From: Phycisphaerae bacterium
GTDB lineage: Bacteria; Planctomycetota; Phycisphaerae; Sedimentisphaerales; Anaerobacaceae
NCBI GenBank assembly: GCA_030604525.1
Contig: JAUVVQ010000005.1
Coordinates: 15,162 to 79,161, forward strand
DNA length: 64,000 bases
Direction of reading: 5' to 3'
Shown here: positions 3,821 through 45,268 of the stretch, in pieces
Layout of the letters: each line of letters opens with the position of its first letter
How positions within the stretch are numbered: the first letter of the stretch is position 1
The notes under the pieces: generated by a model
Seen by the model: the letters and a program-made list of their open reading frames with translations, nothing else
What the model was told of the DNA's origin: nothing
The model's database searches: none
Translations under genes and position numbers: made by a program

Positions 3821-4340
3821 AAAAACACCTCACTTTCTTGATTAAGATTGATAAAAAAAAGCACGCCTCTCGACCACAAGAGATGTGCCTACAGTTACAT
3901 TGGTATTCCGAGGGTATTTCACATTCGGTTAGAGGTATTCCGCGGCAAAATCTGCCGGAAAACCATAATTTGAAAAACAGTTCCAACTAGAATTAGATTT
4001 TACTGATACTTTTCTTACAGCAGGTCATTTCCTAACCTTGTTGCTGTGTGTTTGAATCGCTGTTTTCGGAGTGTCAATTTTCAGCATATGTTTTTGGTAA
4101 ACATATGGACGTCGTCAATGGTTCAAAAGCACTTAACGTGCTGATGCGATTTTTGCCAAAAGGCGTATTGTTGTTTTAAGTTATAGAATTGCTAAAAGAA
4201 ATGCTTTTAAAACAAATCAACTGATTTGCTGGTTGAGTGAATCAGTTGTTTCTTTATAAAGCAAAATTACGGCTGATTAATGTGGAATTGGTTAAATTGT
4301 AATGTGTAACCTCGGCACAAAAAGATGTGCCGAAAAAAAA

Positions 4341-4371: not shown

Positions 4372-4636
4372 TTTAATTTTTTATGCGTATAAAACAGTTG
4401 AATTCTTTTAAACAGCGGATGCTTCATTTGTTGGTATGAATCAGAATTTGATTGTTCAGGAAGAAAGCCTGGCAAGTGTGATTGATGCGGTAAAAAAACT
4501 GATAGCGCAGTTAGATGAGAAAATTAATTGTGTTGTTAAAAAAACTGCCGGGCCTCAAGTACATTCGTCCAGTTCTCAAGGGGCCCCGAACCGTCAGACC
4601 CGGCAACACATGCTATAGCCATATTCAATATTCAAT

Positions 4637-5557
4637 TTACGACTTACGTTTTCTAAGAAACAATCCGCCGAGCCCGACAAGTGCTAATGTTGCTGGCTCA
4701 GGAACTACATTTACAGGGATTTGTAAAGAAGTGGTTTCTGTGCCATCAGTAAGATAAAGTGTTGTCAAGTAGTTGCCAGAATCAGAGAAAACATGTTCGA
4801 GTGACAGTGTGCTTGTTTGAATTCCGCTTGTCCAAGTCGAAAGAGAAGGATATTTATCGTGAGGCACAGGTTCCTCATCAAAGGTAGCAGATCCGCTCTG
4901 GTCTGTCTGGCCATCACCGTCCCAGTCGATGTCATATGAGAAAAAAGGGTTGCCATAGTAGTCTCTGTCAACATACCTGGACCACCATGATGAGCTTTTA
5001 TCTTCAAATTCTAGGCCAAGACTGACAGTTAGTCCTGTGGTTGCTGAACTTTGCAAATACGTTCTTGGAGCATAATTTCGCCAGAGAGATACTTGCGAAA
5101 CAGCCGAAAGGGTCGCCACAATGCCTGAGCCGGTGTCAACCATCTCACTATGTCTCACTAAGTCAGCCAGATAGGCATTTCCCCCTGGTTCAGCCGGGCA
5201 ATCCCATACTTGGGGCGATTGAAAATTCATCGTTGCTGTTATGCTTTCTAATGAAGAAAGTTCGCTGCTTTGCCAGTCTATGATCATTGAACCATCTTCG
5301 AGGTATTCAATCCCGTCGGAAGCACTACACCCAACAACTGTTCCGGTCAACCCCAAAGAATCGGAAGCAATGAAACTTGAATATCGTGTACTCGGACGAA
5401 CTAAAGTGTAGCCGATAGTTGAATTAAAACTACAGTTATATTCGGTAATATCATAGGTTGCTCTGGCTGGCGAAATACCAATTCCGCTTACATCAGAAAC
5501 CATACAGAGGGTTGTTAAGAGTATAAAATTAAATGCTAATAATTCTTTTTTCATCAT
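4637..5557 (-). CDS. PEP-CTERM sorting-domain secreted protein
   Basis: N-terminal signal peptide. C-terminal VPEPATLALVGLGGLFLRKRKS (PEP motif, TM segment, basic tail). Confidence 0.8.
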   Translation of the reverse strand: MMKKELLAFNFILLTTLCMVSDVSGIGISPARATYDITEYNCSFNSTIGYTLVRPSTRYSSFIASDSLGLTGTVVGCSASDGIEYLEDGSMIIDWQSSELSSLESITATMNFQSPQVWDCPAEPGGNAYLADLVRHSEMVDTGSGIVATLSAVSQVSLWRNYAPRTYLQSSATTGLTVSLGLEFEDKSSSWWSRYVDRDYYGNPFFSYDIDWDGDGQTDQSGSATFDEEPVPHDKYPSLSTWTSGIQTSTLSLEHVFSDSGNYLTTLYLTDGTETTSLQIPVNVVPEPATLALVGLGGLFLRKRKS

Positions 5558-5571
5558 CTCACTCTATTAAA

Positions 5572-6294
5572 TTAAATTTGTCGTTTTCTAAAAATTAAAC
5601 CGCCTAAACCCAGCAAGAACAATGTTGCCGGTTCCGGGATTGTTGCTAATTCAAAATTACCTACCCGAAAGGTTGTGTCTTGGCAGGAAGGGATATCTAT
5701 TTCTATAAAGAATTTGTCAACTCCACTAGAGGGGACATCCAACATACCAGCCCAAATGATTTCTCTATCGATATAGGCAGCTATATATTCTCCTGAACTG
5801 TCTAAAAGCATAGCGACTTCGTGAGCGGTATCGCCCTTGGATACAGTATGTTGTACGCCATCAAGCATATCGTAAGTGCCTTCAGAATTTCTATATCCTA
5901 TAGAAATATAGTTGTTCCTAATATTTCCCGGTTCAGGAAAAAATCCTATGTAAGCCTCTAAGTTGCTAGAAAGCTGCATGCCGATTACATTTTTGCCCCA
6001 ACTCGTTAGGCTATAATCGTCAGTTTCCAAGGAAATATCTGCCCTTATTCCTCTTATATCTTCCTCTGGAACTGATGCATATTGGTAAAGTGATGCTCCC
6101 CATTGATACGTTGCCATAGAACGCAAATTCCATGCCCCGTCTCTGCTTGTTACCTCTACATTATATGTTGGAACACGGAAATCCCACTTGTTAAAGTTGC
6201 CACAATCATCATACATTGTCCAGATTGTTGCATTTGTTATCGGAGTCAATACTACCAGCAATAACAAAACGCATAGCGTAATCATTTTTCTCAT
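5572..6294 (-). CDS. PEP-CTERM sorting-domain secreted protein
   Basis: N-terminal signal peptide. C-terminal IPEPATLFLLGLGGLIFRKRQI. Confidence 0.8.
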   Translation of the reverse strand: MRKMITLCVLLLLVVLTPITNATIWTMYDDCGNFNKWDFRVPTYNVEVTSRDGAWNLRSMATYQWGASLYQYASVPEEDIRGIRADISLETDDYSLTSWGKNVIGMQLSSNLEAYIGFFPEPGNIRNNYISIGYRNSEGTYDMLDGVQHTVSKGDTAHEVAMLLDSSGEYIAAYIDREIIWAGMLDVPSSGVDKFFIEIDIPSCQDTTFRVGNFELATIPEPATLFLLGLGGLIFRKRQI

Positions 6295-6331
6295 TTATAC
6301 GTTCCCTTCTGATTTTAAGTTGACTATTTTG

Positions 6332-6961
6332 TTATAAATACAACCGGTCTAAGGCCTTTTTAATTTCGGGCAGCATTACATCCGCATAAACCTGGGTTGT
6401 TGTAATTTTTGCGTGTCCCAGTTGTTTCTGTACAAGGCGAAGATTCCAGTTGCTCGCTTTTAACAAAAAGCACGCGTATGTGTGCCTCAGGCAGTGAATC
6501 GAATAATGCAGAGGCAGGTCTGCTCTTTGTGCACATCGCTTAAATGCTTTCTGTATAGCTCTGGTCGTCATGTGTCCTCCGGTATTGCTGGATAACAATA
6601 ATGGCTGAGCGGCTTCTGTCGATTCGCCGATACTTTGTTTCCATGCCAGATATTCCTTACAATGCTGTTTGAATGGGCCGTTAAAAAAGACCCTTCTTTT
6701 TTTATTGCCTTTGCCGTTTTTTACCAGCAGCGACGGGAGCGTGTCATCTGTGCTGAGATCGTCGCAATTCAGTGCCACCATTTCCATTACCCGAAGGCCG
6801 GTTGCCAGGCCCAGATGGATAATAAAGTAATCCCTTACAGCGGTTTTCTTTTCCTTTGGATAGGCAGATTCCGCTCTGTTTTTGGCAACAGCCAGCAGTT
6901 TCTCCGCATCCTTCCTTGGCAGAAACTTCTTGGGATCAAGCTCCCAGGAATTTGATTTCAT
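6332..6961 (-). CDS. Tyrosine recombinase/integrase, short form (catalytic domain only)
   Basis: Catalytic residues in order: GLRVME (Arg), KGNKKR (Lys), HCLRHT (His-x-x-Arg), GHAKI (His), QVYADV (Tyr). Confidence 0.85.
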   Translation of the reverse strand: MKSNSWELDPKKFLPRKDAEKLLAVAKNRAESAYPKEKKTAVRDYFIIHLGLATGLRVMEMVALNCDDLSTDDTLPSLLVKNGKGNKKRRVFFNGPFKQHCKEYLAWKQSIGESTEAAQPLLLSSNTGGHMTTRAIQKAFKRCAQRADLPLHYSIHCLRHTYACFLLKASNWNLRLVQKQLGHAKITTTQVYADVMLPEIKKALDRLYL

Positions 6962-7277
6962 TCTTTTTCAGGCATCATGTCCTCCTTTCATATTTGGTGT
7001 GAAATATGAACTTATTTGACAAGGAAATATGGGCTTAAATACTTTTTGGATAAGGAGATACAACGACAAAGAGCGGGCTTTGTTTGGCGAAAAACTTCTT
7101 CGGGAAAAAGGCATGATTTGACAAATTTGAAACGCAAAATCGCTGAAAAAATGTTTTTATCGACGATTTTTTAGGAAAAAATTTTGAAATGACAATAAAA
7201 AAAGGTTCAGAAAACACACCTTATCTGAACCTTTGACTTTAATTGTAGCATATTTGCTTTTGGATTTCAAGCATTTC

Positions 7278-7306
7278 TTGACAATAACTGCTATCTAATT
7301 ATAATT
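7278..7306 (+). promoter_or_regulatory. Sigma70-like promoter for the HTH/methyltransferase operon
   Basis: TTGACA (7278-7283), 17-nt spacer, ATAATT (7301-7306), about 55 nt upstream of the ATG at 7361. Confidence 0.4.
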
Positions 7307-7360
7307 ACTGGAACTTCCCGTTTTAGGGTAAATATGTTTTATGGCTGGAGATAACGCTGT

Positions 7361-7558
7361 ATGTCAAAAAAACAGGACATTTTAACTATTGACGAGCTTT
7401 CCAAGTATCTGAAAATTCCTAAGTCTACTGTATACAAACTTTGTCAGGAAGGGAAGGTGCCAGGGCAAAAAGTTGGAAGACATTGGCGGTTCCACAAGGA
7501 AGTCATTGATAGTTGGATTAAAGAAGGTAGTTCTGCTTCTGGTAGCAATAAACGATAG
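7361..7558 (+). CDS. Excisionase/MerR-type helix-turn-helix protein (65 aa)
   Basis: LTIDELSKYLKIPKSTVYKLCQEGKVPGQKVGRHWRF matches the HTH_17/Xis-like pattern. The gene is divergent from the integrase. Confidence 0.8.
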   Translation: MSKKQDILTIDELSKYLKIPKSTVYKLCQEGKVPGQKVGRHWRFHKEVIDSWIKEGSSASGSNKR

Positions 7559-7606
7559 CTCTAATTTTGAGTGAAATGATATGATTATATTTGTAGTGAG
7601 ATTGAT

Positions 7607-8806
7607 ATGCCGAAGAGCTTAAAATACATCGATCTGTTTGCGGGGTGCGGCGGGCTATCGTTGGGACTATTCAATTCAAGTTGGCGAGGTATCTTTGCCA
7701 TAGAAAAAGATGCTATGGCTTTTGAAACCTTAAACCACAATCTAGTTGAACAAAAGAACCATTTTGATTGGCCAGATTGGTTACCAAAGACATGTCATGA
7801 TATAGATGAATTGTTGGAAGACTATCGTGAAAATCTTGAAGCCCTAAGCGGAGAGATAGATTTAGTTGTAGGTGGCCCACCTTGCCAGGGCTTTTCTATG
7901 GCTGGAAAGAGAAAAGAAAGTGATGCACGTAACAAACTAATTCACTCATATATTCAATTTGTTGATTATGTCAGACCTCGTGTAATATTATTTGAAAATG
8001 TAAAAGGCTTTACTCTAGGTTTTACCAAGAATGGCAAGCAGGGACAGCCATATTCAGATGTTGTCCTAAGTAGCTTAAAGGAGTTAGGGTATAGTGATGT
8101 TAGGGGTGAGTTAATAAATTTCGCTAAATTTGGAGTGCCCCAAAGAAGGGAGCGTTTTATTATAATAGGTACTCTTGATGGCAATGCAGACCACTTTTTT
8201 AGTAACTTATTGGCAAACCGGCAAAAGTTTTTGTCGGCAAAAAAATTAAAATCAAATATAGGTGTGAGATTAGCGATTTCGGATTTGAAAGAATCAAGTG
8301 GCTTAGTTGATTGTCCCGACACCCCAGGATTCAAATCAGGGCGATATATTTCTCCTAGAAATAATTATCAAAAATTACTTCGTAAATATGTCAATAAGAC
8401 GGCCATTCCCGACAGCCACCGTTTTGTAAATCATCGTCCAAATACTATCGACATTTATAAAAACCTTTTGAGCCGGGCAGAACGAAATATATCTGTAAAT
8501 GATGCTCTGAGGGAGGAACTTGGCATTAGTAAACGAAATGTAACCGTATTAGACAGCACAAAACCATCTCCAACATTGATGAGCATACCCGATGATTATG
8601 TCCATTACTGTGAACCAAGGGTGTTGACGGTTAGGGAATATGCCCGGATACAGTCTTTTCCTGATTGGTATAGATTTAAAGGCAATTATACAACCGGTGG
8701 AAAACGTAGAGCAAATGAGGTACCCCGTTATACCCAGGTTGGTAATGCAATTCCCCCGTTGTTTGCTGAACATGCCGGTAATATTCTAAAGGAGTTGTTA
8801 GATTAG
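7607..8806 (+). CDS. DNA (cytosine-5)-methyltransferase
   Basis: Motif I DLFAGCGGLSLG, motif IV GGPPCQGFS, motif VI LFENVKGF, motif VIII QRRERFII, motif X GNAIPP. Confidence 0.95.
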   Translation: MPKSLKYIDLFAGCGGLSLGLFNSSWRGIFAIEKDAMAFETLNHNLVEQKNHFDWPDWLPKTCHDIDELLEDYRENLEALSGEIDLVVGGPPCQGFSMAGKRKESDARNKLIHSYIQFVDYVRPRVILFENVKGFTLGFTKNGKQGQPYSDVVLSSLKELGYSDVRGELINFAKFGVPQRRERFIIIGTLDGNADHFFSNLLANRQKFLSAKKLKSNIGVRLAISDLKESSGLVDCPDTPGFKSGRYISPRNNYQKLLRKYVNKTAIPDSHRFVNHRPNTIDIYKNLLSRAERNISVNDALREELGISKRNVTVLDSTKPSPTLMSIPDDYVHYCEPRVLTVREYARIQSFPDWYRFKGNYTTGGKRRANEVPRYTQVGNAIPPLFAEHAGNILKELLD

Positions 8807-11098
8807 ATGGCAAAGCTTGATCCAAATAAATTTCGAGTTAGCTCAGCACTAAAAAATATCATTGGCAAAGAGTTAATTACCGATGATTTTATTGCAGTAT
8901 TTGAATTAGTCAAAAATTCTTTTGATGCACATGCAGCACAAGTTGATATCTTTTTTGAAGGTATCCGTGGCGATAATACAAGGCTTATCATATGGGATGA
9001 TGGCAAAGGAATGGATAGGGAGGATATAATAAAAAAATGGCTTTTTGTTGCCTATTCTGCAAAAAAAGAAGGGACGGAAGACTACAGGGATAAGATTAAA
9101 TCCAAACTTATTCATGCAGGGTCTAAGGGAATTGGGCGTTTTTCCTGTGATAGGCTTGGTAGTAACCTTACTTTTTATACGAAGAGAAAGGGAGACAATG
9201 CAAAAATCAATAAGCTTGTAGTCGATTGGGCTGACTTTGAACAAGACTCGCAAGAAGAATTTATTAATATCAAGATTAAACATAGTTATGTCCAAGAAGC
9301 ACCTTACGAAAACTTTAAACATGGTACGATATTGGAGATAACCGGATTACTGGAAAGATGGAATAGAGATAAACTTCTTACGCTAAGACATTCTCTTGAA
9401 AAATTAATTAATCCCAACCAGGAAAATGATCCGCATGGCTTCTCGATATATCTTAATGTTGAAGAGGAAGAAGAAAAAGACAGGGAAGAAAAAGCAAAGG
9501 GTGAGAAAAGAGATATTGTTAATGGTAGGATTGAAAATAAAATATTTGAAAATTTAGAAATTAAAACAACAAAAATCAACACAGTTATTTCTAAAGACGG
9601 CAAAACCATTACTACCCTCCTAGAAGATAGAGGGACCTTGATATATAAAGTTGTTGAAGAAAATTCTTACAAAGAACTACTTAAAAATATTAATATTTAT
9701 CTTTTTGTGCTTAATCGTTCCGCCAAACTTAGTTTTTCAAAAAGGATGGGGATTCGTGCAGTTCAGTATGGTTCTATTTTCCTTTACAAGAATGGCTTTA
9801 GAATCTATCCATTCGGAGAACCAGGGCAAGATACACTTAAAATAGATCATCGTAAACAACAGGGGACAGCACGCTTTTTCGGCACACGTGATTTAATAGG
9901 ACGAATAGAAATTAATGGGAATAACCCTTTGTTTCAGGAGACAAGTAGCAGGGACGGCGGTCTTATCCGCAACTCAGCCTATGAAGTCTTGGAGAAATTT
10001 TTTACTGAGTATGTGCTAAAGAGACTTGAAAAATTCGCTATTGGTGTAATCAAATGGGGTAATGATGGCGATTTGCTAGACCACGAGCAACTTAGCCCCG
10101 CAGAGATGAAGAAAAAAGTTTCCGATATCGTGTACCATCTAACGACATCTGAAAATATTATTGATTTCAACTACAATCCAAAACTTATTGATGTACTGCA
10201 GGATAGGACCGAGAGAAGCCTTAAGAAGATACTCGGCAACCTACAGCACATCGCGGAACAATCAGATAACCAGCTTGTTGCCAAAGAGATTAGGCGAGCT
10301 CAAAGACAATATAACTCTCTCTTAAAAGCTAAAGAGGAAGCTGAAAAAGGAGAACAAGCTGCAAAGGAAGAGACCAGAAAAGGAAAGGATGTTGTAAAAC
10401 AAAAGGAAACTCAAAACTTATTTTTGAAGGCAGCTATACCCCATGACGTGAAGTTCCTGGATAATCTCTGTCACTCTATTGGAATGTACGCAGATGGTAT
10501 GCATGATGACATCAGGGATATATTGTCAGAGGCAAAGAAAAAACAGATGAGTAGGAATGTCATCGTAGGTGCAATTAAAAATATAAGTTACCATTCGAAT
10601 ACAATCGCTTCGTTGGCCAAATTTGTATCAAGGGCTAAATTCAGGTTTGATTGTGCCAAGATGAGAAAGGACTTAATCCTCTTCATGAGAGAGCATTTGT
10701 TGAACGTCTCTTCGGAGATTTACAAAAAGGAGATACGGATCAAGTTTACCAGCGAGATTAAAGGAAAATTCGTTTGTGAATTCAGGCCAATAGAGATAAC
10801 GATACTTCTCGATAACTTAATAAGTAACTCAATAAAAAAGAAGGCACGGAATTTTATCATTGATGTCATGTCTCTGACGCCCGGAATGTTGAAGGTTAGT
10901 TTTTCGGATGATGGTCAGGGTGTGCCCAGTTCGGTTCGTGATTGCCTTTTCGAGGAAGGTATAACCACAACAAGTGGTTCCGGTTTAGGGTTATTTCATG
11001 TGAAAGAGATAATCACCAGCATGAAGGGCAGCATACAGTTCAATCCTGATTACAAAGGTGGAGCTCAATTCGTAGCTACATTTAAGAGGAAACCATGA
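8807..11098 (+). CDS. Fusion protein: N-terminal MORC/HATPase_c_3-like GHKL ATPase plus C-terminal histidine kinase (DHp-like H-box and CA domain)
   Basis: N-terminal motifs ELVKNSFDAHA, IWDDGKGMD, GSKGIGRFS. A Lys/Glu coiled-coil follows, then IPHDVKFLDNL (His546). C-terminal motifs LLDNLISNSIKK (N box), FSDDGQGV (G1), SGSGLGLFHVKEI (G2). The start codon directly abuts the methyltransferase stop. Confidence 0.7.
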   Translation: MAKLDPNKFRVSSALKNIIGKELITDDFIAVFELVKNSFDAHAAQVDIFFEGIRGDNTRLIIWDDGKGMDREDIIKKWLFVAYSAKKEGTEDYRDKIKSKLIHAGSKGIGRFSCDRLGSNLTFYTKRKGDNAKINKLVVDWADFEQDSQEEFINIKIKHSYVQEAPYENFKHGTILEITGLLERWNRDKLLTLRHSLEKLINPNQENDPHGFSIYLNVEEEEEKDREEKAKGEKRDIVNGRIENKIFENLEIKTTKINTVISKDGKTITTLLEDRGTLIYKVVEENSYKELLKNINIYLFVLNRSAKLSFSKRMGIRAVQYGSIFLYKNGFRIYPFGEPGQDTLKIDHRKQQGTARFFGTRDLIGRIEINGNNPLFQETSSRDGGLIRNSAYEVLEKFFTEYVLKRLEKFAIGVIKWGNDGDLLDHEQLSPAEMKKKVSDIVYHLTTSENIIDFNYNPKLIDVLQDRTERSLKKILGNLQHIAEQSDNQLVAKEIRRAQRQYNSLLKAKEEAEKGEQAAKEETRKGKDVVKQKETQNLFLKAAIPHDVKFLDNLCHSIGMYADGMHDDIRDILSEAKKKQMSRNVIVGAIKNISYHSNTIASLAKFVSRAKFRFDCAKMRKDLILFMREHLLNVSSEIYKKEIRIKFTSEIKGKFVCEFRPIEITILLDNLISNSIKKKARNFIIDVMSLTPGMLKVSFSDDGQGVPSSVRDCLFEEGITTTSGSGLGLFHVKEIITSMKGSIQFNPDYKGGAQFVATFKRKP

Positions 11099-40238: not shown

Positions 40239-41546
40239 TTATTTGTTTTTTAGAAGATTTTTTAATTCTTTATTTATTCTGACGGAGCACCATTTTTTTC
40301 CGCACATTGAGCAGTAATCGGCTGTGGGAAATTCTTCGGCTCCGATTTCCTTGCAGGCATCCTTGTGCATTCTTTCGGCGGTTTGCGGGTCGAGAGCTTC
40401 TTTGAGATGAGTTTTCCAGTCGAGGTTTGCCCTTGCGGTGCTCAGTTTTTTGTCTTTTTTGTCGGCGTTTTTCAAGCCCTTTGCTATATCAGCGGCGTGT
40501 GCGGCTATTTTGACGGCGATGACGCCGGCTCTGACATCATCGGAGTTAGGCAGTCCGAGGTGCTCTTTCGGGGTAACATAACAGAGGAATGAGGCCCCGT
40601 AGAAAGCGGCGGCGGTGCCGCCGATTGCAGAGGTTATATGGTCGTAGCCGGGGGCAATGTCGGTAACGACCGGGCCGAGGACGTAAAAGGGCGCTCCATT
40701 GCAGATTTTCTGCTGTATTTCGATGTTATATTGTATCTGGTCAAACGGGATATGTCCGGGTCCTTCGACCATAACCTGACAGCCCTTTTGCTGCGCTCTT
40801 TCAGTCAGCTCGCCGAGGGTATTAAGCTCTGCGATTTGCGCTTCGTCTGTTGCGTCGGCTATTGCACCCGGCCGAAGTCCGTCGCCAAGAGAGAAACAGA
40901 TATCATACTTGGCCAGGATGCCGCAAAGCTCGTCGAACATTTCATAAAGCGGATTTTGTTTATTGTGATATAGCATCCATTTGGCGAGCAGTGCGCCGCC
41001 TCGGCTTACGATACCGCCTACTCGTCTCTCAAGCAGGGGCAGGTGTTCTTTCAGGACGCCTGCGTGGATGGTGAAGAAATCCACGCCCTGTTTTGCTTGT
41101 TTTTCGATAGTCTGGAGGATGCTTTTCCTATCGATATCTTCGACATTTCTTCCTTCTATTACCTGATAGATGGGGACCGTTCCGAATGGGAGAGGACAGT
41201 TTCCAAGCAGCTCGACTCTGGTTGCATCGAGATTAGCGCCGGTGCTTAGGTCCATAACGGCGTCGGCGCCTGCGTCGATGGCGGTTTGCATCTTTTCTAT
41301 TTCTTCTTCGACCGAAGAGCTGATACTGCTGGTTCCGATGTTTGCATTTATCTTTGTTGTAAGCGCCTTGCCGATACCGATTGGTTTCAGGTTGGAGTTT
41401 AAGTGTATTTTATTTGCGGGTATTACGATATGGCCGGCAGCTACCTCGGCGCGTATAAATTCGGCGTTGAGATGTTCGGTTTCGGCGACCGATTTGATTT
41501 CGTTGGTGATTTTGCCGTTTTTTGCTTCTTGCAGTTGTGTTGACAT
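40239..41546 (-). CDS. thiC: Phosphomethylpyrimidine synthase
   Basis: Full-length similarity to short-form ThiC (NANIGTS, HIPFDQIQ and others) with a C-terminal CSMCGKKWCS cluster motif. A TPP riboswitch lies upstream. Confidence 0.95.
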   Translation of the reverse strand: MSTQLQEAKNGKITNEIKSVAETEHLNAEFIRAEVAAGHIVIPANKIHLNSNLKPIGIGKALTTKINANIGTSSISSSVEEEIEKMQTAIDAGADAVMDLSTGANLDATRVELLGNCPLPFGTVPIYQVIEGRNVEDIDRKSILQTIEKQAKQGVDFFTIHAGVLKEHLPLLERRVGGIVSRGGALLAKWMLYHNKQNPLYEMFDELCGILAKYDICFSLGDGLRPGAIADATDEAQIAELNTLGELTERAQQKGCQVMVEGPGHIPFDQIQYNIEIQQKICNGAPFYVLGPVVTDIAPGYDHITSAIGGTAAAFYGASFLCYVTPKEHLGLPNSDDVRAGVIAVKIAAHAADIAKGLKNADKKDKKLSTARANLDWKTHLKEALDPQTAERMHKDACKEIGAEEFPTADYCSMCGKKWCSVRINKELKNLLKNK

Positions 41547-41619
41547 TTTTATCTCAATTAAAAAATAGAAAAAGTTTTCGAGGGCAGCGAAATGAAGGGC
41601 TTGTGTATTTTTTATTACA

Positions 41620-41722
41620 CTTCACTTCCCTACGCAGGTAACACCGCCTTTAATGCGGCTTCCTGATCAGGTTCCAAGGGTTTTTCTCAGGCCCGTTTTC
41701 AGCGAGCCACCCCTAGCAGACT
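41620..41722 (-). promoter_or_regulatory. TPP (THI-box) riboswitch
   Basis: The minus strand reads CTAGGGGTGGCTCGCTGAAAACGGGCCTGAGAAAAACCCTTGGAACCTGATCAGG...CCTGCGTAGGGAAGTG. This contains the conserved GGGGTG, CTGAGA, ACCCTT, GAACCTGATC and GCGTAGGGAAG blocks, directly 5' of thiC. Confidence 0.8.
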
Positions 41723-41868
41723 GAATGTTATTATAGCTTATTAGTTTTTGCAGTCAAATATAAACCCCGTCAGAAAGCTCAGATGGGGCGATAAAGCCCA
41801 CCCTCGCTACCTGTTTTTTACCCCGCCCAAAGGGCGAATCCTTCTTTCTAACGAGGCAAAGGGGATAC

Positions 41869-41919
41869 ATCTACCGGTCGTTATTTTGGACAAGCTTTGC
41901 TCAGGACTTTACAGCCGGT
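41869..41919. repeat. 51-bp direct repeat, copy 1 (duplicate of the 3' end of the M24 peptidase gene plus 13 nt downstream)
   Basis: Identical to 44192..44242 except for one mismatch (a/g at the fifth base). Confidence 0.9.
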
Positions 41920-42189
41920 GAAGAGGAAGGAATTTAATACGGTCTGGTTGGTTTCGCTTTCAAATAATTTCCCGAATGGGTCATAGCTGTAGAAATTGTT
42001 CACATCCCCGGCTGTATCAATTACCTGCCGGACGCTTCCCAGCCGGTCGTGCAGGTAGAAGTATTTGTCGTTATCATAATCGCCATCATACTGGGCGATA
42101 ATCTGACTATTTGCGTACATATAAGTCTTCCCTATAGAGTCATCCGCTGTGCCGAACAAACCATCCCCTCCCGGCTCTATTTCTAACAA
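41881..42189 (-). pseudogene. Orphan RHS core fragment fused in frame to a duplicated peptidase C-terminal tail
   Basis: The protein LEIEPGGDGLFGTADDSIGKTYMYANSQIIAQYDGDYD...FYSYDPFGKLF is nearly identical to part of ORF 42961..44124. The last 12 aa (TGCKVLSKACPK) equal the C-terminus of ORF 44204..45268. Confidence 0.7.
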
Positions 42190-42228
42190 TATGGTCAGTA
42201 GCTTGCCGACGACATCGACAATATATTT
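41961..42228. repeat. RHS core repeat, copy 1 (about 268 bp near-identical; a diverged extension runs to 41915)
   Basis: Aligns with 43695..43962 at a constant offset of 1734 nt. About ten mismatches by eye. Confidence 0.85.
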
Positions 42229-42233
42229 ATGTG

Positions 42234-42860
42234 TTATTTTTGGCTCTGTAAATCATACCATAGTATGTATCCATAATTTTTCACTTCATATTCGTCTCGG
42301 AATTTATCCAGAAGATACAGTTTCCCTGCTTCTTTAAAGGTATGTCGATAGCCGGGGTAATTCAGGAAATATCTAATTTCACAGTTTATCTTCGGATTCT
42401 TAGAATAATAAATCACATCTATTGTATCCCCTTTTGGTAAATCAGCGTAGTAAGGCTTCGGTCCCCAAACCATGCTATAATATGTCTTCTCCTCTTGGGT
42501 TTCAGGCTTTTTTGCTTTAAATTGATACATAAGTTTCCAGCCCAGTGGTGCATCTTCTGAATACCAGCTTTTGATAACCTCTCCTTCAATAATTTTACCT
42601 TTTTCTAATAACATGATAACATTTTCATCTTTTCTCATAATACTTGTGTCTGGAAAGGTACAACTATAAAGAGCGATAATTATCGTCGCAACTCCCACAA
42701 CTCGGCCTGTCCAGACAATAAATATCTCATTAATAATCGGAATACTAAGGAAACTATTCGGATACTTCTTAATTTGCAAATTGCCAAGCCACCTTGAAAA
42801 AAGTAACCAAAAAATTCCCATAATAAAAGGGATGATCATAAATGAATCGAAAAAAAACAT
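42234..42860 (-). CDS. Membrane protein, candidate RHS immunity protein (DUF3592-like layout)
   Basis: Lies immediately downstream of the RHS toxin tip. N-terminal TM helices are followed by a beta-rich domain. Visibly AT-rich. Confidence 0.5.
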   Translation of the reverse strand: MFFFDSFMIIPFIMGIFWLLFSRWLGNLQIKKYPNSFLSIPIINEIFIVWTGRVVGVATIIIALYSCTFPDTSIMRKDENVIMLLEKGKIIEGEVIKSWYSEDAPLGWKLMYQFKAKKPETQEEKTYYSMVWGPKPYYADLPKGDTIDVIYYSKNPKINCEIRYFLNYPGYRHTFKEAGKLYLLDKFRDEYEVKNYGYILWYDLQSQK

Positions 42861-42960
42861 TATCTTTATCCTACATTAACTTATTATTACCAACAAAATC
42901 AAATGAGATACATCTGTTATTTTAAATGTCAAAACCCTTTATTGCTACAACTTCTATATC

Positions 42961-44124
42961 TTACTGTAAAACATCCAAATTTACATCTGTCATTAACATG
43001 AATTTTAATACAAACCGTGCCTCACCATAGGTGGTAGATTTATAAAAAGCTTCTGCTGCTGCCGTCCCCATAACTTCTTCGAAGGTCATACCCTCGATAT
43101 GTGCTGGGTCCACATAAGTTTGCGTTTTGTGTATATGTGCCTCAACCGGTGAAGATATACCTACGCCAATATTAAACTTTATTCCCCTGTAAGGTTCTTC
43201 TTCACCTCCCCAAATAATTTCTGCACCAACGCCAAAAAAGCCAGAACTCACACCTGCTCCAAGACCCCAACCCAGACCGCGTAATTGAAATATATCAGAA
43301 GCGTTTGTTATGCCTATTTGGATGCCCATTGATGCCGATAAGGAACCGACACCATATTGTGATATGCCAATAACACCCCACTGTCCTTTGTCGTCCCAAA
43401 CTATACCGGTTTGACCTGCAAGACTATAGCCAAGAGATGCCATAAAGCCACCGGTAATGTAATAAGCGTCGAGGCCTATAATATCAATCATATTTATAGG
43501 GTCATTTTGGCAGTACAGATACTTATGCAGTGTCATCGGCTCGGTGAATTTACCTGTTACCGGGTCGCGGCCGGTAAAACGCATAACTACCGGGTCATAC
43601 ATCCTCGCCCGCAGATAATACTGGCCAATTTCGGAATCAAACCACTGCCCGGTGAACATAAACGGATTGGTTACGGTCTCTTCTGTCTCGCTGTCAAATA
43701 ATTTCCCGAATGGGTCATAGCTGTAAAAATTGTTCACATTCCCGGCTGTATCGATTACCTGCCGGACGCTTCCCAGCCGGTCGTGCAGGTAGAAGTATTT
43801 GGCGTCATCATAATCGCCATCATACTGGGCTATAATCTGACTATTTGCGTACATATAAGTCTTCCCTATAGAGTCATCCGCTGTGCCGAACAAACCATCC
43901 CCTCCCGGCTCTATTTCTAACAATATGGTCGGCAGTTTGCCGACGACATCGACGATATATTTCCTCTTTGTTGTCTGACCCGAAACGCTCGACTCTTTGT
44001 ATATCCGGTTCCCGAACGCATCGTATTTTAAGTTAATGGTATTAGTAGAGTCATATGTTGCCTCTCTCAATTTATCATTCCAATTATACTCTAAATCCAA
44101 ACCAGCCGCAACACCTTCTTTCAT
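42961..44124 (-). CDS. RHS repeat-associated core plus C-terminal toxin tip; 5'-truncated (no N-terminal region)
   Basis: YD repeats (YDENGNM upstream of the listed Met, then YDAFGNRIY). Core end motif YYLRARMYDPVVMRFTGRDP...HKYLYCQNDPINMIDIIGL, followed by a Gly-rich tip of about 170 aa. The frame is open only back to about 44225, inside the peptidase gene tail. Confidence 0.8.
   Translation of the reverse strand: MKEGVAAGLDLEYNWNDKLREATYDSTNTINLKYDAFGNRIYKESSVSGQTTKRKYIVDVVGKLPTILLEIEPGGDGLFGTADDSIGKTYMYANSQIIAQYDGDYDDAKYFYLHDRLGSVRQVIDTAGNVNNFYSYDPFGKLFDSETEETVTNPFMFTGQWFDSEIGQYYLRARMYDPVVMRFTGRDPVTGKFTEPMTLHKYLYCQNDPINMIDIIGLDAYYITGGFMASLGYSLAGQTGIVWDDKGQWGVIGISQYGVGSLSASMGIQIGITNASDIFQLRGLGWGLGAGVSSGFFGVGAEIIWGGEEEPYRGIKFNIGVGISSPVEAHIHKTQTYVDPAHIEGMTFEEVMGTAAAEAFYKSTTYGEARFVLKFMLMTDVNLDVLQ
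43695..43962. repeat. RHS core repeat, copy 2
   Basis: See copy 1 at 41961..42228. Confidence 0.85.
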
Positions 44125-44191
44125 ATTCCCATTTTCGTCGTAACCCAGCGAAAAGCTTTCTTCGCCCGCAGCGGTTCATCGACCTCTATCA

Positions 44192-44242
44192 ATCTGCCGG
44201 TCGTTATTTTGGACAAGCTTTGCTCAGGACTTTACAGCCGGT
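44192..44242. repeat. 51-bp direct repeat, copy 2 (the native 3' end of the M24 peptidase gene)
   Basis: See copy 1 at 41869..41919. Confidence 0.9.
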
Positions 44243-45268
44243 TTTGGTTACTAACACGTCGTCCTCGATTCTGATACCGATTTGGGAGGGTATGTAAATA
44301 CCCGGTTCGATGGTGAAGATCATACCGGTTTTTATTTTGGTTTTGGTTTTTTTGGATATGAATGGTTTTTCGTGGACTTCCAGTCCGAGCCCGTGTCCGG
44401 TGCCGTGTTTATATACGGGTAAATCATATCCGGCGATGATTCCCCTGGCGGCGGTATCGACATCTGAAAGTTCTACGCCCGGTTTTATTGAATTAATTGC
44501 AGCGGCTTGAGATTCTTTTACTGCCTGGTACACTTGCTTGAAGAGTGAGCTTGCTTTCCCGACTGCAAAACATCTTGTAATGTCACAACAGTAGCTTTTG
44601 AATTTGACACCGAAATCGATGAGGATGGTATCGTTTTTTTTCAGCGTCCTTTTCCCCGGCTGGTGGTGAGGTCTGGAGCCGTTTGGGCCGAAAGCTGCGA
44701 TGGTCTCGAAACAATTTTTGGCGCCGAGTTTTCTTATCTCGAAGTCGAGTCTGCCTGCGAACTGGTTTTCGGTTATATTCGGCTTGAAATATTTCTTGGT
44801 TTCGTTAAGTGCTTTTGCAGCAATTTCTGCTGCTGCTTCGATATGTTTTATTTCCTGTTTGTCTTTGATGGTGCGTATGTTTTCGATGAGGTCGGCTTCG
44901 GTTTTTATTTTCGCTTTGATATTATTTTTTAATCTTCGAAATACTCCGAGCTTGACGGCGATTTCCAGGCCGGCGGTTTTGACGGATTTACCGGAATTTA
45001 TAATCTTGGCGGCAGCTTCAGGGAGGGATTTCTTCCGTTCGATTATTTTGCAGGCGGGACACTGTTTTTGCGCCTGTTCGGTATATCGGCTGTCCGTCAA
45101 GAGGTAAGCGCTTCTTTCAGTAATTATTACCCAGCTATCATCGCCTGTAAAGCCGGTTAAGTAGGTTATATTTGCCGGTTGTGTGACGAGCAGGCAGTTC
45201 AAATTCTTTTTGTCGAGCTTTTGCCGAAGCAGCTTTAGCCGGGTTTTTATAGTTTGCTCTTTGGGCAT
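44204..45268 (-). CDS. Xaa-Pro aminopeptidase / M24 family metallopeptidase
   Basis: N-terminal creatinase-like domain. Metal ligand contexts DFGVKFKSYCCDITR, HGTGHGLGLEVHE, EPGIY, IRIEDDVLVT. Confidence 0.9.
   Translation of the reverse strand: MPKEQTIKTRLKLLRQKLDKKNLNCLLVTQPANITYLTGFTGDDSWVIITERSAYLLTDSRYTEQAQKQCPACKIIERKKSLPEAAAKIINSGKSVKTAGLEIAVKLGVFRRLKNNIKAKIKTEADLIENIRTIKDKQEIKHIEAAAEIAAKALNETKKYFKPNITENQFAGRLDFEIRKLGAKNCFETIAAFGPNGSRPHHQPGKRTLKKNDTILIDFGVKFKSYCCDITRCFAVGKASSLFKQVYQAVKESQAAAINSIKPGVELSDVDTAARGIIAGYDLPVYKHGTGHGLGLEVHEKPFISKKTKTKIKTGMIFTIEPGIYIPSQIGIRIEDDVLVTKTGCKVLSKACPK

Follow-up and report, generated by a model that had tools for sequence, protein, structure and literature searches.

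Orphan rhs-CT/rhsI modules and displacement arrays of the Enterobacteriaceae were reportedly described by Jackson et al. in 2009. Orphan modules in the C-terminal displacement arrays of that family were treated by Poole et al. 2011 (PMC3150448), and orphan and displacement arrays are credited in PMC5361080 to Koskiniemi et al. 2014 (PMC3967940). Homology-facilitated illegitimate recombination (HFIR), for which PMC5361080 cites de Vries & Wackernagel 2002 (PMC122324), makes one of its two joints by homology and the other illegitimately (PMC3240628), and it has been proposed as the origin of orphan and displacement arrays at type VI secretion system (T6SS) and Rhs loci, including the effector-immunity displacement of Vibrio cholerae (PMC5361080). 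Here we describe a cassette of Rhs fragments that lies between the peptidase gene pepP and thiC in a metagenome-assembled genome (MAG, G000 in our comparisons) of an uncultured planctomycete of the Phycisphaerae, order Sedimentisphaerales. The MAG comprises 2.35 Mb in 89 contigs, is 82% complete and has a GC content of 44%; statements about genes absent from it refer to the assembled 82%. The window, that is, the whole stretch of 64,000 nucleotides that was analysed, corresponds to C25:15162-79161. The cassette is probably a recombinase-free, microhomology-mediated scar of the HFIR/displacement type.

Read along the minus strand, the locus consists of pepP, a first copy of the pepP tail (T1), a short filler, an Rhs fragment (orphan 1), an open reading frame (ORF) for a membrane protein, a second Rhs core (orphan 2), a second tail copy (T2), a 100-nt element and the thiC region (Table 1). 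The two tail copies form a direct repeat (41869-41919 and 44192-44242) that encloses 2,272 bp, is identical at 50 of 51 positions, and was recovered with E = 2e-21 in a self-BLAST of 5.6 kb. It contains the last 12 codons of pepP (TGCKVLSKACPK), the stop codon and 12 nt downstream. An earlier note on this DNA had described the 51-nt duplication and its one mismatch correctly, counting 13 nt for the downstream part. The sole mismatch, C at 44196 against T at 41873, is non-coding; in the upstream copy it is 4 nt away from the inner end. Because of its position the exact repeat is 46 nt long, with CCGG at both ends; the mismatched base may itself be derived from Rhs, and the true duplication would then be the 46 nt between two CCGG sites.

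Table 1. Features of the cassette and its flanks, in the order in which they are met on the minus strand (window coordinates).
Feature	Coordinates	Strand	Support
pepP (M24 Xaa-Pro peptidase), complete, C-terminus ...VTKTGCKVLSKACPK*	44204..45268	-	Pfam Peptidase_M24 1e-67 and Creatinase_N; C-terminus conserved in relatives
T1, pepP tail copy contiguous with pepP, the working gene end: 12 codons, stop, 12 nt	44192..44242	-	
J1 (proximal joint), scrambled filler TGATAGAGGTCGATGA with a TGA in frame at its end; Rhs-like sequence again from ACCGCTGCGGGCGAAGAAAGC (TAAGEES) onwards	44176..44191	-	
Orphan 1, Rhs shell/core fragment without N-terminal delivery region, ending in the motif ...HKYLYCQNDPINMIDIIGL	43471..44175	-	
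Orphan 1 toxin tip (predicted), about 170 aa, Gly-rich	42961..43470	-	Without Pfam or NCBIfam family
Candidate immunity gene, 208 aa, two predicted N-terminal transmembrane helices and a soluble domain	42234..42860	-	
Orphan 2, second Rhs core fragment, starting directly after the immunity stop, cut at ...FLFTG, no tip	41920..42228	-	
T2, ghost pepP tail, fused in frame to orphan 2 at ACCGG (J2, distal joint), contiguous with native downstream flank	41869..41919	-	
Structured dispersed element, 100 nt, between T2 and the thiC promoter	41761..41860	.	
thiC promoter TTGACT-16-TATAAT, intact downstream of T2	41757..41730	-	
Thiamine pyrophosphate (TPP) riboswitch, intact	41724..41610	-	
thiC	40239..41546	-	Pfam ThiC_Rad_SAM 1e-184

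A long exact repeat in a MAG contig could in principle reflect the assembly: pepP, its tail and the native flank would form one molecule, a separate molecule or locus would run from a tail copy through the Rhs genes and the second core to another tail copy, and the two would have been mis-threaded through the 46-nt exact repeat in the de Bruijn graph. A repeat of 46 nt is shorter than many assembler k-mers resolve unambiguously. However, both junction sequences must exist in the reads and the sample, so that Rhs DNA abuts pepP-tail DNA on both sides even in this case; beside J1 there is a one-base difference between the two repeat copies, and similar structures are found in the independent assemblies of relatives. 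We give an artefact of this kind very little credence. A circle occurring beside an empty site would be a formal alternative, which needs both junction sequences as well.

Comparison with relatives indicates what the locus looked like before the cassette. In genomes of five different genera of the same family (G024, G016, G015, G005 and G001) and in a metagenome contig (L030), the conserved thiC promoter and the TPP riboswitch are found within tens of bases behind pepP. Since pepP runs straight into this promoter and riboswitch in related genera, the cassette is an insertion, and these empty sites bear out the earlier view that a module entered at the 3' end of pepP while the complete gene was kept. 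The comparison is one between genera and not between strains, the nearest to the strain test proposed in the earlier note that the data allow, and it returned the arrangement sought, with pepP directly before the promoter and riboswitch. The pepP proteins of the relatives end in ...TGCKVLTRSCPH or a similar sequence; because these C-termini match the duplicated tail, the tail is native pepP sequence. After the insertion pepP has retained its full C-terminus, and the promoter and riboswitch of thiC are intact. The composition of the insert differs from that of its flanks, with 30-36% GC in the immunity gene against 44-53%, and the sign of the GC skew is reversed. The layout is that of a displacement scar: a working gene end and its displaced copy flank the cargo, and relatives carry the empty site.

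The cargo is recognizable as Rhs. The RHS-associated core domain TIGR03696 matches amino acids 136-218 of the ORF that begins at the ATG at 44124 (4.1e-21, 75 bits against a cut-off of 32.5), and the core terminates in the PxxxxDPxGL cleavage motif, which reads ...NDPINMIDIIGL in this sequence. This match, together with a pairing of tip and immunity gene that is conserved in homologous loci, supports the proposal that the cassette is an orphan Rhs tip/immunity module. In a homologue search with orphan 1 many matches covered the core only (about 50-55% of the query) and few reached the tip. The N-terminal delivery region and a start of its own are missing, and the frame opens directly behind pepP. 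It had been thought to open inside the pepP tail, which is wrong: one stop falls within the repeat and another (TGA) at 44178-44176, and the open frame begins at 44175, which is 17 nt past the repeat, with its first ATG at 44124 and its stop at 42961.

Orphan 2 repeats part of orphan 1 at a constant offset of 1734 without indels. Positions 41960-42228 are 96.3% identical over 269 nt, in good agreement with the 268 bp at about 95% first estimated by eye; the following 45 nt, up to the joint, are 68.9% identical, and the repeat as a whole is 92.4% identical over 314 nt. This mosaic core, 96% and then 69%, marks an old crossover.

At the distal joint the fusion ORF (42189..41881) reads ...FLFTG and continues directly with CKVLSKACPK. 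The corresponding sequences are TTCACCGGGCAG (FTGQ) in the first core, AAAACCGGCTGT (KTGC) in pepP and TTCACCGGCTGT in the fusion, and the microhomology ACCGG is common to the Rhs FTG codons and the pepP TG codons (pepP codons 343-344). The in-frame fusion reported previously at CCGGT is therefore real, the same five bases being ACCGG on the coding strand and CCGGT on the plus strand, and microhomology-mediated joining, one of the routes that had been suggested, is borne out at this joint. A distal illegitimate joint at a microhomology, here ACCGG, is what HFIR leads one to expect.

The proximal joint is less clean. Beyond T2 the native flank reads ...AACGACCGGTAGAT followed by GTATCC, and on the T1 side ...AACGACCGGCAGAT is followed by TGATAGAGGTCGATGA and then by ACCGCTGCGGGCGAAGAAAGC. 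At the same protein position the homologous Rhs gene of locus L027 reads TACGCCGGCGAC followed by CTTATGGATACGGCGTCCGGCGGAGAAAGC (YAGD, then LMDTASGGES; the DNA is also given as TACGCCGGCGAC followed by CTTATGGATACGGCG). Loci L027/L028 carry a 91-nt repeat (96% identical; 2707-2797 and 4614-4704), which is the N-terminal part of a short Rhs ORF with a second copy after its immunity gene, and this repeat breaks exactly after GCCGGCGAC (...TACGCCGGCGAC, YAGD), the same Rhs position as J1. From the L027 homologue and the break in the 91-nt repeat it follows that Rhs-derived DNA starts 20 nt or less away from the CCGG of T1. Judged from these alignments, J1 would coincide with a second CCGG or lie not more than 20 nt from it; this CCGG corresponds to the conserved Rhs codons for "YAGD" (GCCGGCGAY). 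The genome has about 5 CCGG per kb, and the local density is 9-11 per kb. In a genome with 44% GC we take these sites for GC-rich microhomologies, with no more specific role. Cut-and-paste by a restriction enzyme at RCCGGY, an idea prompted by the CCGG at either end of the exact repeat, was considered and dropped: CCGG is common, and the site in the first core, ACCGGG, does not fit RCCGGY.

Joints at or beside CCGG microhomologies on both sides could also have arisen in one intragenomic event, by a microhomology template switch or ends-in gap repair: replication or repair would have departed from the tail at CCGG(Y)AGAT, used 2.3 kb of an Rhs array elsewhere in the genome as template and rejoined the tail at ACCGG, 46 nt upstream. 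The near identity of the tail copies (50/51) agrees with such an event, and the scrambled 16-20 nt at J1 resemble templated or slipped repair. However, no donor copy is present in the assembled part of the genome, where the only other DNA match to the cassette is one of 117 nt at 84% to the first core, on C63, and the displaced gene ends at other loci are diverged (73-94%), which is a better fit to imported alleles. We regard a template switch as possible, if unlikely.

A T1-Rhs joint and an in-frame joint between the second core and T2 would likewise result from duplication and deletion. A larger tandem duplication would have spanned pepP and an adjacent Rhs locus, and a last deletion from the ACCGG of orphan 2 to the ACCGG of the second pepP would have left 51 nt. 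Although Rhs arrays are prone to rearrangement, this history requires three events or more, and an Rhs locus would have to have stood upstream of pepP in the ancestor; no such locus is seen in the genome or its relatives, and the synteny rhomboid-pepP-thiC is conserved. Duplication followed by deletion is quite improbable.

The arrangement of gene end, cargo and displaced ("ghost") gene end is not confined to this locus. A second pepP case lies on a metagenome contig (L032, Ga0272442_10002128), where positions 5998-8896 hold pepP (58% identical), a gene for a 538-aa polytopic membrane protein and a ghost pepP tail (8811-8896; 76-88 nt, 83% identity); this cargo is unrelated to the Rhs cassette. 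On a contig of GCA_030605475.1 (L029) the 3' end of queG is duplicated (9500-9579 and 9842-9921; 80 nt, 86%) around a 262-bp insert resembling repetitive extragenic palindromic (REP) sequences, directly upstream of two tandem Rhs orphan cassettes. In L025 (G003:C53) it is the 5' end of thiC that is duplicated (2408-2490 and 4070-4152; 83 nt, 73%), around an insertion of 1,662 bp. Here the TPP riboswitch stands in front of a membrane ORF of 540 aa, which is fused to the first 22 or so codons of thiC, and the real thiC follows with no riboswitch of its own. Three further cases are found in the MAG itself: the end of a GH38-like gene around an alpha-galactosidase gene (C46:25435-28510; 119 nt, 88%), the end of an AcrB gene around a Ysc84-like gene (C50:20254-21810; 158 nt, 94%) and the end of an ETF-QO gene around a 202-aa ORF (C71:5597-6973; 123 nt, 79%). 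A segment of a HAD hydrolase gene around a 1,033-aa GEVED-domain gene (C32:42061-45445; 64 nt, 95%) is a possible further case. A repeat on C74 (end of mnmE, 76 nt, 97%) was rejected as a ghost end; it is a REP-like element of the GTCATTGCGA... type.

Short cassettes homologous to the one described here also stand directly behind other housekeeping genes, namely eno-ftsB-like (L022), an Iso_dh gene (L027/L028) and queG (L029), and another occurs in L026. No full-length rhs gene was found within 10 kb of any of these cassettes.

The earlier note had favoured, among other routes, site-specific integration of a circular intermediate. The 46-51 nt would then be the attL and attR of a small integrative cassette, with a recombinase acting in trans and excision as a 2.3-kb circle. 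Long direct repeats do regenerate the 3' end of a conserved gene here, as in islands that target tRNA genes or gene ends, and insertions at pepP ends are known from two lineages. Against this, the three ORFs of the insert have no recombinase domain, and the nearest tyrosine recombinase (PF00589) lies about 35 kb away. The inner boundary of T2 falls at a microhomology inside a truncated coding sequence. An element with one shared att core is disfavoured by the independent pepP case in L032, where the ghost is 76-88 nt long and 83% identical and the cargo is a different one, and no pepP homologue was found at the eight other loci of the family that carry the tip (the match and about 1.5 kb on each side where the contig allows). 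The duplications at the other insertions measure 76-88, 80 and 83 nt, with unrelated cargo, and the layout recurs within the MAG. Site-specific integration thus finds no support and is the least probable of the explanations considered. A transposable element with a target site duplication finds no support either; there is no transposase, the ends lack inverted repeats, and a duplication of 46-51 nt is not a short one of fixed length. The varying repeat lengths, the diverged ghosts, the unrelated cargo and the lack of a recombinase argue against a site-specific element or transposon, and they fit HFIR.

From the anatomy, the empty sites, the microhomology and the recurrence we infer the following path. 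A 2.27-kb slice of an Rhs orphan array, consisting of a core fragment with its tip, the immunity gene and the beginning of the next orphan core, would have been joined 12 nt behind the pepP stop codon by host recombination and repair. The incoming DNA, probably conspecific, would already have borne the 3' part of pepP with a tail of its own and the Rhs cargo. Homology inside pepP would have served as the anchor, and the illegitimate join would have been made at ACCGG within the resident pepP tail (HFIR, "C-terminal displacement"). This would have moved the resident tail downstream, as the ghost T2, and truncated the array within orphan 2.

Several observations weigh against this account. Exact-protein look-ups of pepP and thiC, made for a conspecific sequence or a second assembly, gave no match; the exact 39-nt pattern of the tail had no match (0) in metagenome contigs; and the nearest pepP relatives in the collections are 56-60% identical, with no conspecific genome among them. 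With relatives as distant as these, the donor allele upstream of T1 is a putative one. The single difference between T1 and T2 (1/51) is as compatible with an intragenomic event as with a conspecific donor. The exact base of J1 is lost in 16-20 scrambled nt, and HFIR only shifts the origin of this joint to an earlier, unobserved event in the donor. Import by HFIR and an intragenomic template switch would leave the same structure.

Should the duplicated gene ends act as working "homology handles", this cassette and the other cargo between ghost ends in the lineage might spread among related genomes by host recombination alone, or loop out as circles through the 46-51-nt repeats and re-enter. 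We consider this distinctly unlikely; if true, it would amount to recombinase-free cassette exchange, with conserved gene ends as portable attachment sites, in a T6SS-less lineage that carries its Rhs toxins on giant Sec-exported adhesin-like proteins.

A locus of the parent type of the cassette was found in a genome of the same family, G078. There a 5,589-aa ORF (L129, G078:C85, 616-18055) combines RHS repeats with a signal peptide and with fn3/Ig, beta-helix, cadherin-like and LamG domains; a tip of the same family forms its end, and an immunity homologue comes next. Orphan 1 is collinear with the last 404 aa of this protein at 55% identity. No gene of this giant type was detected by tblastn in the MAG. 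From the collinearity, the shared tip and immunity gene and the absence from the MAG, we regard the cassette as a 3' slice of a giant, Sec-exported, T6SS-independent type of Rhs gene. The giant architecture in G078 may merit a study of its own.

A scan of the MAG returned eight Rhs-core hits; the second, truncated core of the cassette was found in the protein search only and is not among them. The sole full-length Rhs gene of the MAG (C25:3825-7745) encodes 1,307 aa and a signal peptide; it is found on the same contig, at a distance of about 50 kb, and its core is an unrelated one, 35% identical. A full-length gene with a matching core, which the earlier note had proposed to look for in the genome, is thus lacking, and the cassette stands behind pepP instead of downstream of a full-length rhs gene with a homologous core. 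The previous statement that no full-length RHS or PAAR gene is nearby holds for the window and for PAAR, and is qualified by the 1,307-aa gene. Neither a PAAR nor a TssC gene was found in the MAG. The further Rhs-core matches are two core-tip-immunity-core' cassettes on C46, an orphan on C19 and a relic on C63. The C46 cassettes, one beside an xerD-like gene (C46:5944-8440) and one directly behind folD (C46:37010-39774), belong to a different Rhs core subfamily; their core repeats measure 213 nt at 93% and 179 nt at 98%, and in both the second fragment is longer N-terminally and has no tip. The relic (C63:34111-34545) is a 145-aa Rhs core cut just after DPVTG, with an NMO-like gene on one side and efp-secA on the other.

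The tip belongs to a rare family (56 representatives in a set of 1.84e9 proteins), and a scan of 150 genomes of the family found the tip in 8; searches of genome contigs with peptide patterns confirmed no tip relatives. The suggestion from the representative search that the tip occurs on short proteins only was refuted by the 5,589-aa ORF of G078. An AlphaFold2 model of the tip built from 25 sequences (predicted local distance difference test score, pLDDT, 87.5) has eight long antiparallel strands followed by C-terminal helices. The PDB structures nearest to it are the Vap barrels of Rhodococcus equi, which also have eight strands, and the matches are weak (E = 4e-3, TM-scores 0.35/0.49), so that the predicted likeness is a lead and not a classification. 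Homologues of the immunity protein, at 47-51% identity, are encoded after tip homologues in at least four other loci (L022, L026, G078 and G060), and P0173 and P0019, on one contig, were counted toward the co-occurrence of tip and immunity gene. The 208-aa family is rare too, with only four relatives in the databases, and the model of the immunity protein was poor (pLDDT 59), too low for a fold search. The predicted features suggest that the tip and the 208-aa protein are probably a membrane-active toxin with its membrane immunity protein.

As no promoter or terminator of its own is evident for the cassette, read-through transcription from pepP is likely; inspection of the sequence between pepP and the cassette gave no convincing candidate for either. 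The part under selection is probably the immunity gene, which would protect against neighbours delivering the tip on a giant Sec-exported Rhs protein such as that of G078. Orphan 1 has no delivery region, and its cognate full-length gene is absent from the MAG, and for these reasons it appears to be a reserve or a relic, at most an internally expressed toxin-antitoxin-like pair. Internal expression, as in the orphans of Salmonella (PMC7043789), would be possible by analogy. With cores only 35% identical, an exchange of orphan 1 into the resident Rhs gene would not be possible.

The downstream flank holds one further insertion. The 100-nt element is a separate small insertion that is missing from the pepP-thiC spacers of the relatives. 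A 79%-identical copy lies at C40:20764-20861, and partial copies are found in G003 (two) and G013; the element has no Rfam match, its minus strand folds at -43 kcal/mol (z = -2.6), and its ends are inverted (CCCGTYAGAAAG/CTTTCTRACGGG). The idea that it is the end of a larger mobile element carrying the cassette was rejected, as there is no second copy near T1 and its ends lie off the repeat boundary. Elsewhere the spacer between pepP and thiC holds about 1.5 kb of other genes in L031 and L033 and about 5 kb in G018. In the MAG as a whole GATC and CTAG are strongly depleted, at 0.42 and 0.10 per kb; other 4-mer palindromes reach 4.4 (TCGA), 4.8 (AGCT) and 5.0 per kb (CCGG).

The locus keeps both joints of a gene-gain event, one of which is an in-frame microhomology fusion of an Rhs core and a housekeeping tail. 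For the displacement/HFIR model, so far mostly inferred for Rhs and T6SS arrays, it supplies direct evidence from sequence on the illegitimate half. In the Sedimentisphaerales, short core-tip-immunity cassettes are scattered behind housekeeping genes, far from full-length rhs genes and without a T6SS; the parent genes encode giant Sec-signal proteins, and the tip and immunity protein are a rare, uncharacterised and probably membrane-active pair. This is a well-preserved example of a known process, in a phylum and a delivery context not described before, and not a new mobile element. Current concepts are left unchanged, and they are extended to a new phylum and by a testable toxin family.

Compared with the orphan arrays of the Enterobacteriaceae, the cassette has the same succession of a core ending in PxxxxDPxGL, a variable tip, a cognate immunity gene and a further core fragment directly after it; its core is mosaic, and it has no start or delivery region. 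It differs in its position between pepP and thiC rather than behind a full-length rhs gene, in that the displaced "orphan end" belongs to a housekeeping gene and not to rhs, and in that the lineage shows no T6SS and the parent type is a 5,589-aa adhesin-like Rhs protein with a Sec signal. The orphan Rhs module of Salmonella, which resembles a type II toxin-antitoxin system (PMC7043789), likewise has a toxin without delivery part beside an immunity gene, and the first ATG of the cassette (44124) falls within the Rhs fragment; however, the tip and immunity families are unrelated to those of Salmonella, and the cassette is known here from sequence, in which no internal promoter was seen. Islets flanked by att sites, such as tyrosine-recombinase islands, also have direct repeats, tens of bases long, by which a conserved gene regains its 3' end, but the present locus has no integrase, one of its repeat boundaries is a microhomology joint in a truncated ORF, and the repeat length varies among independent cases. 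The cases attributed to HFIR share with it a cargo between a working end and a displaced copy, one GC-rich microhomology joint, the lack of a recombinase and a retained immunity gene. In contrast to them, its homologous anchor is a putative one, the anchor peptidase is unrelated to the toxin system, and the two tail copies are almost identical.

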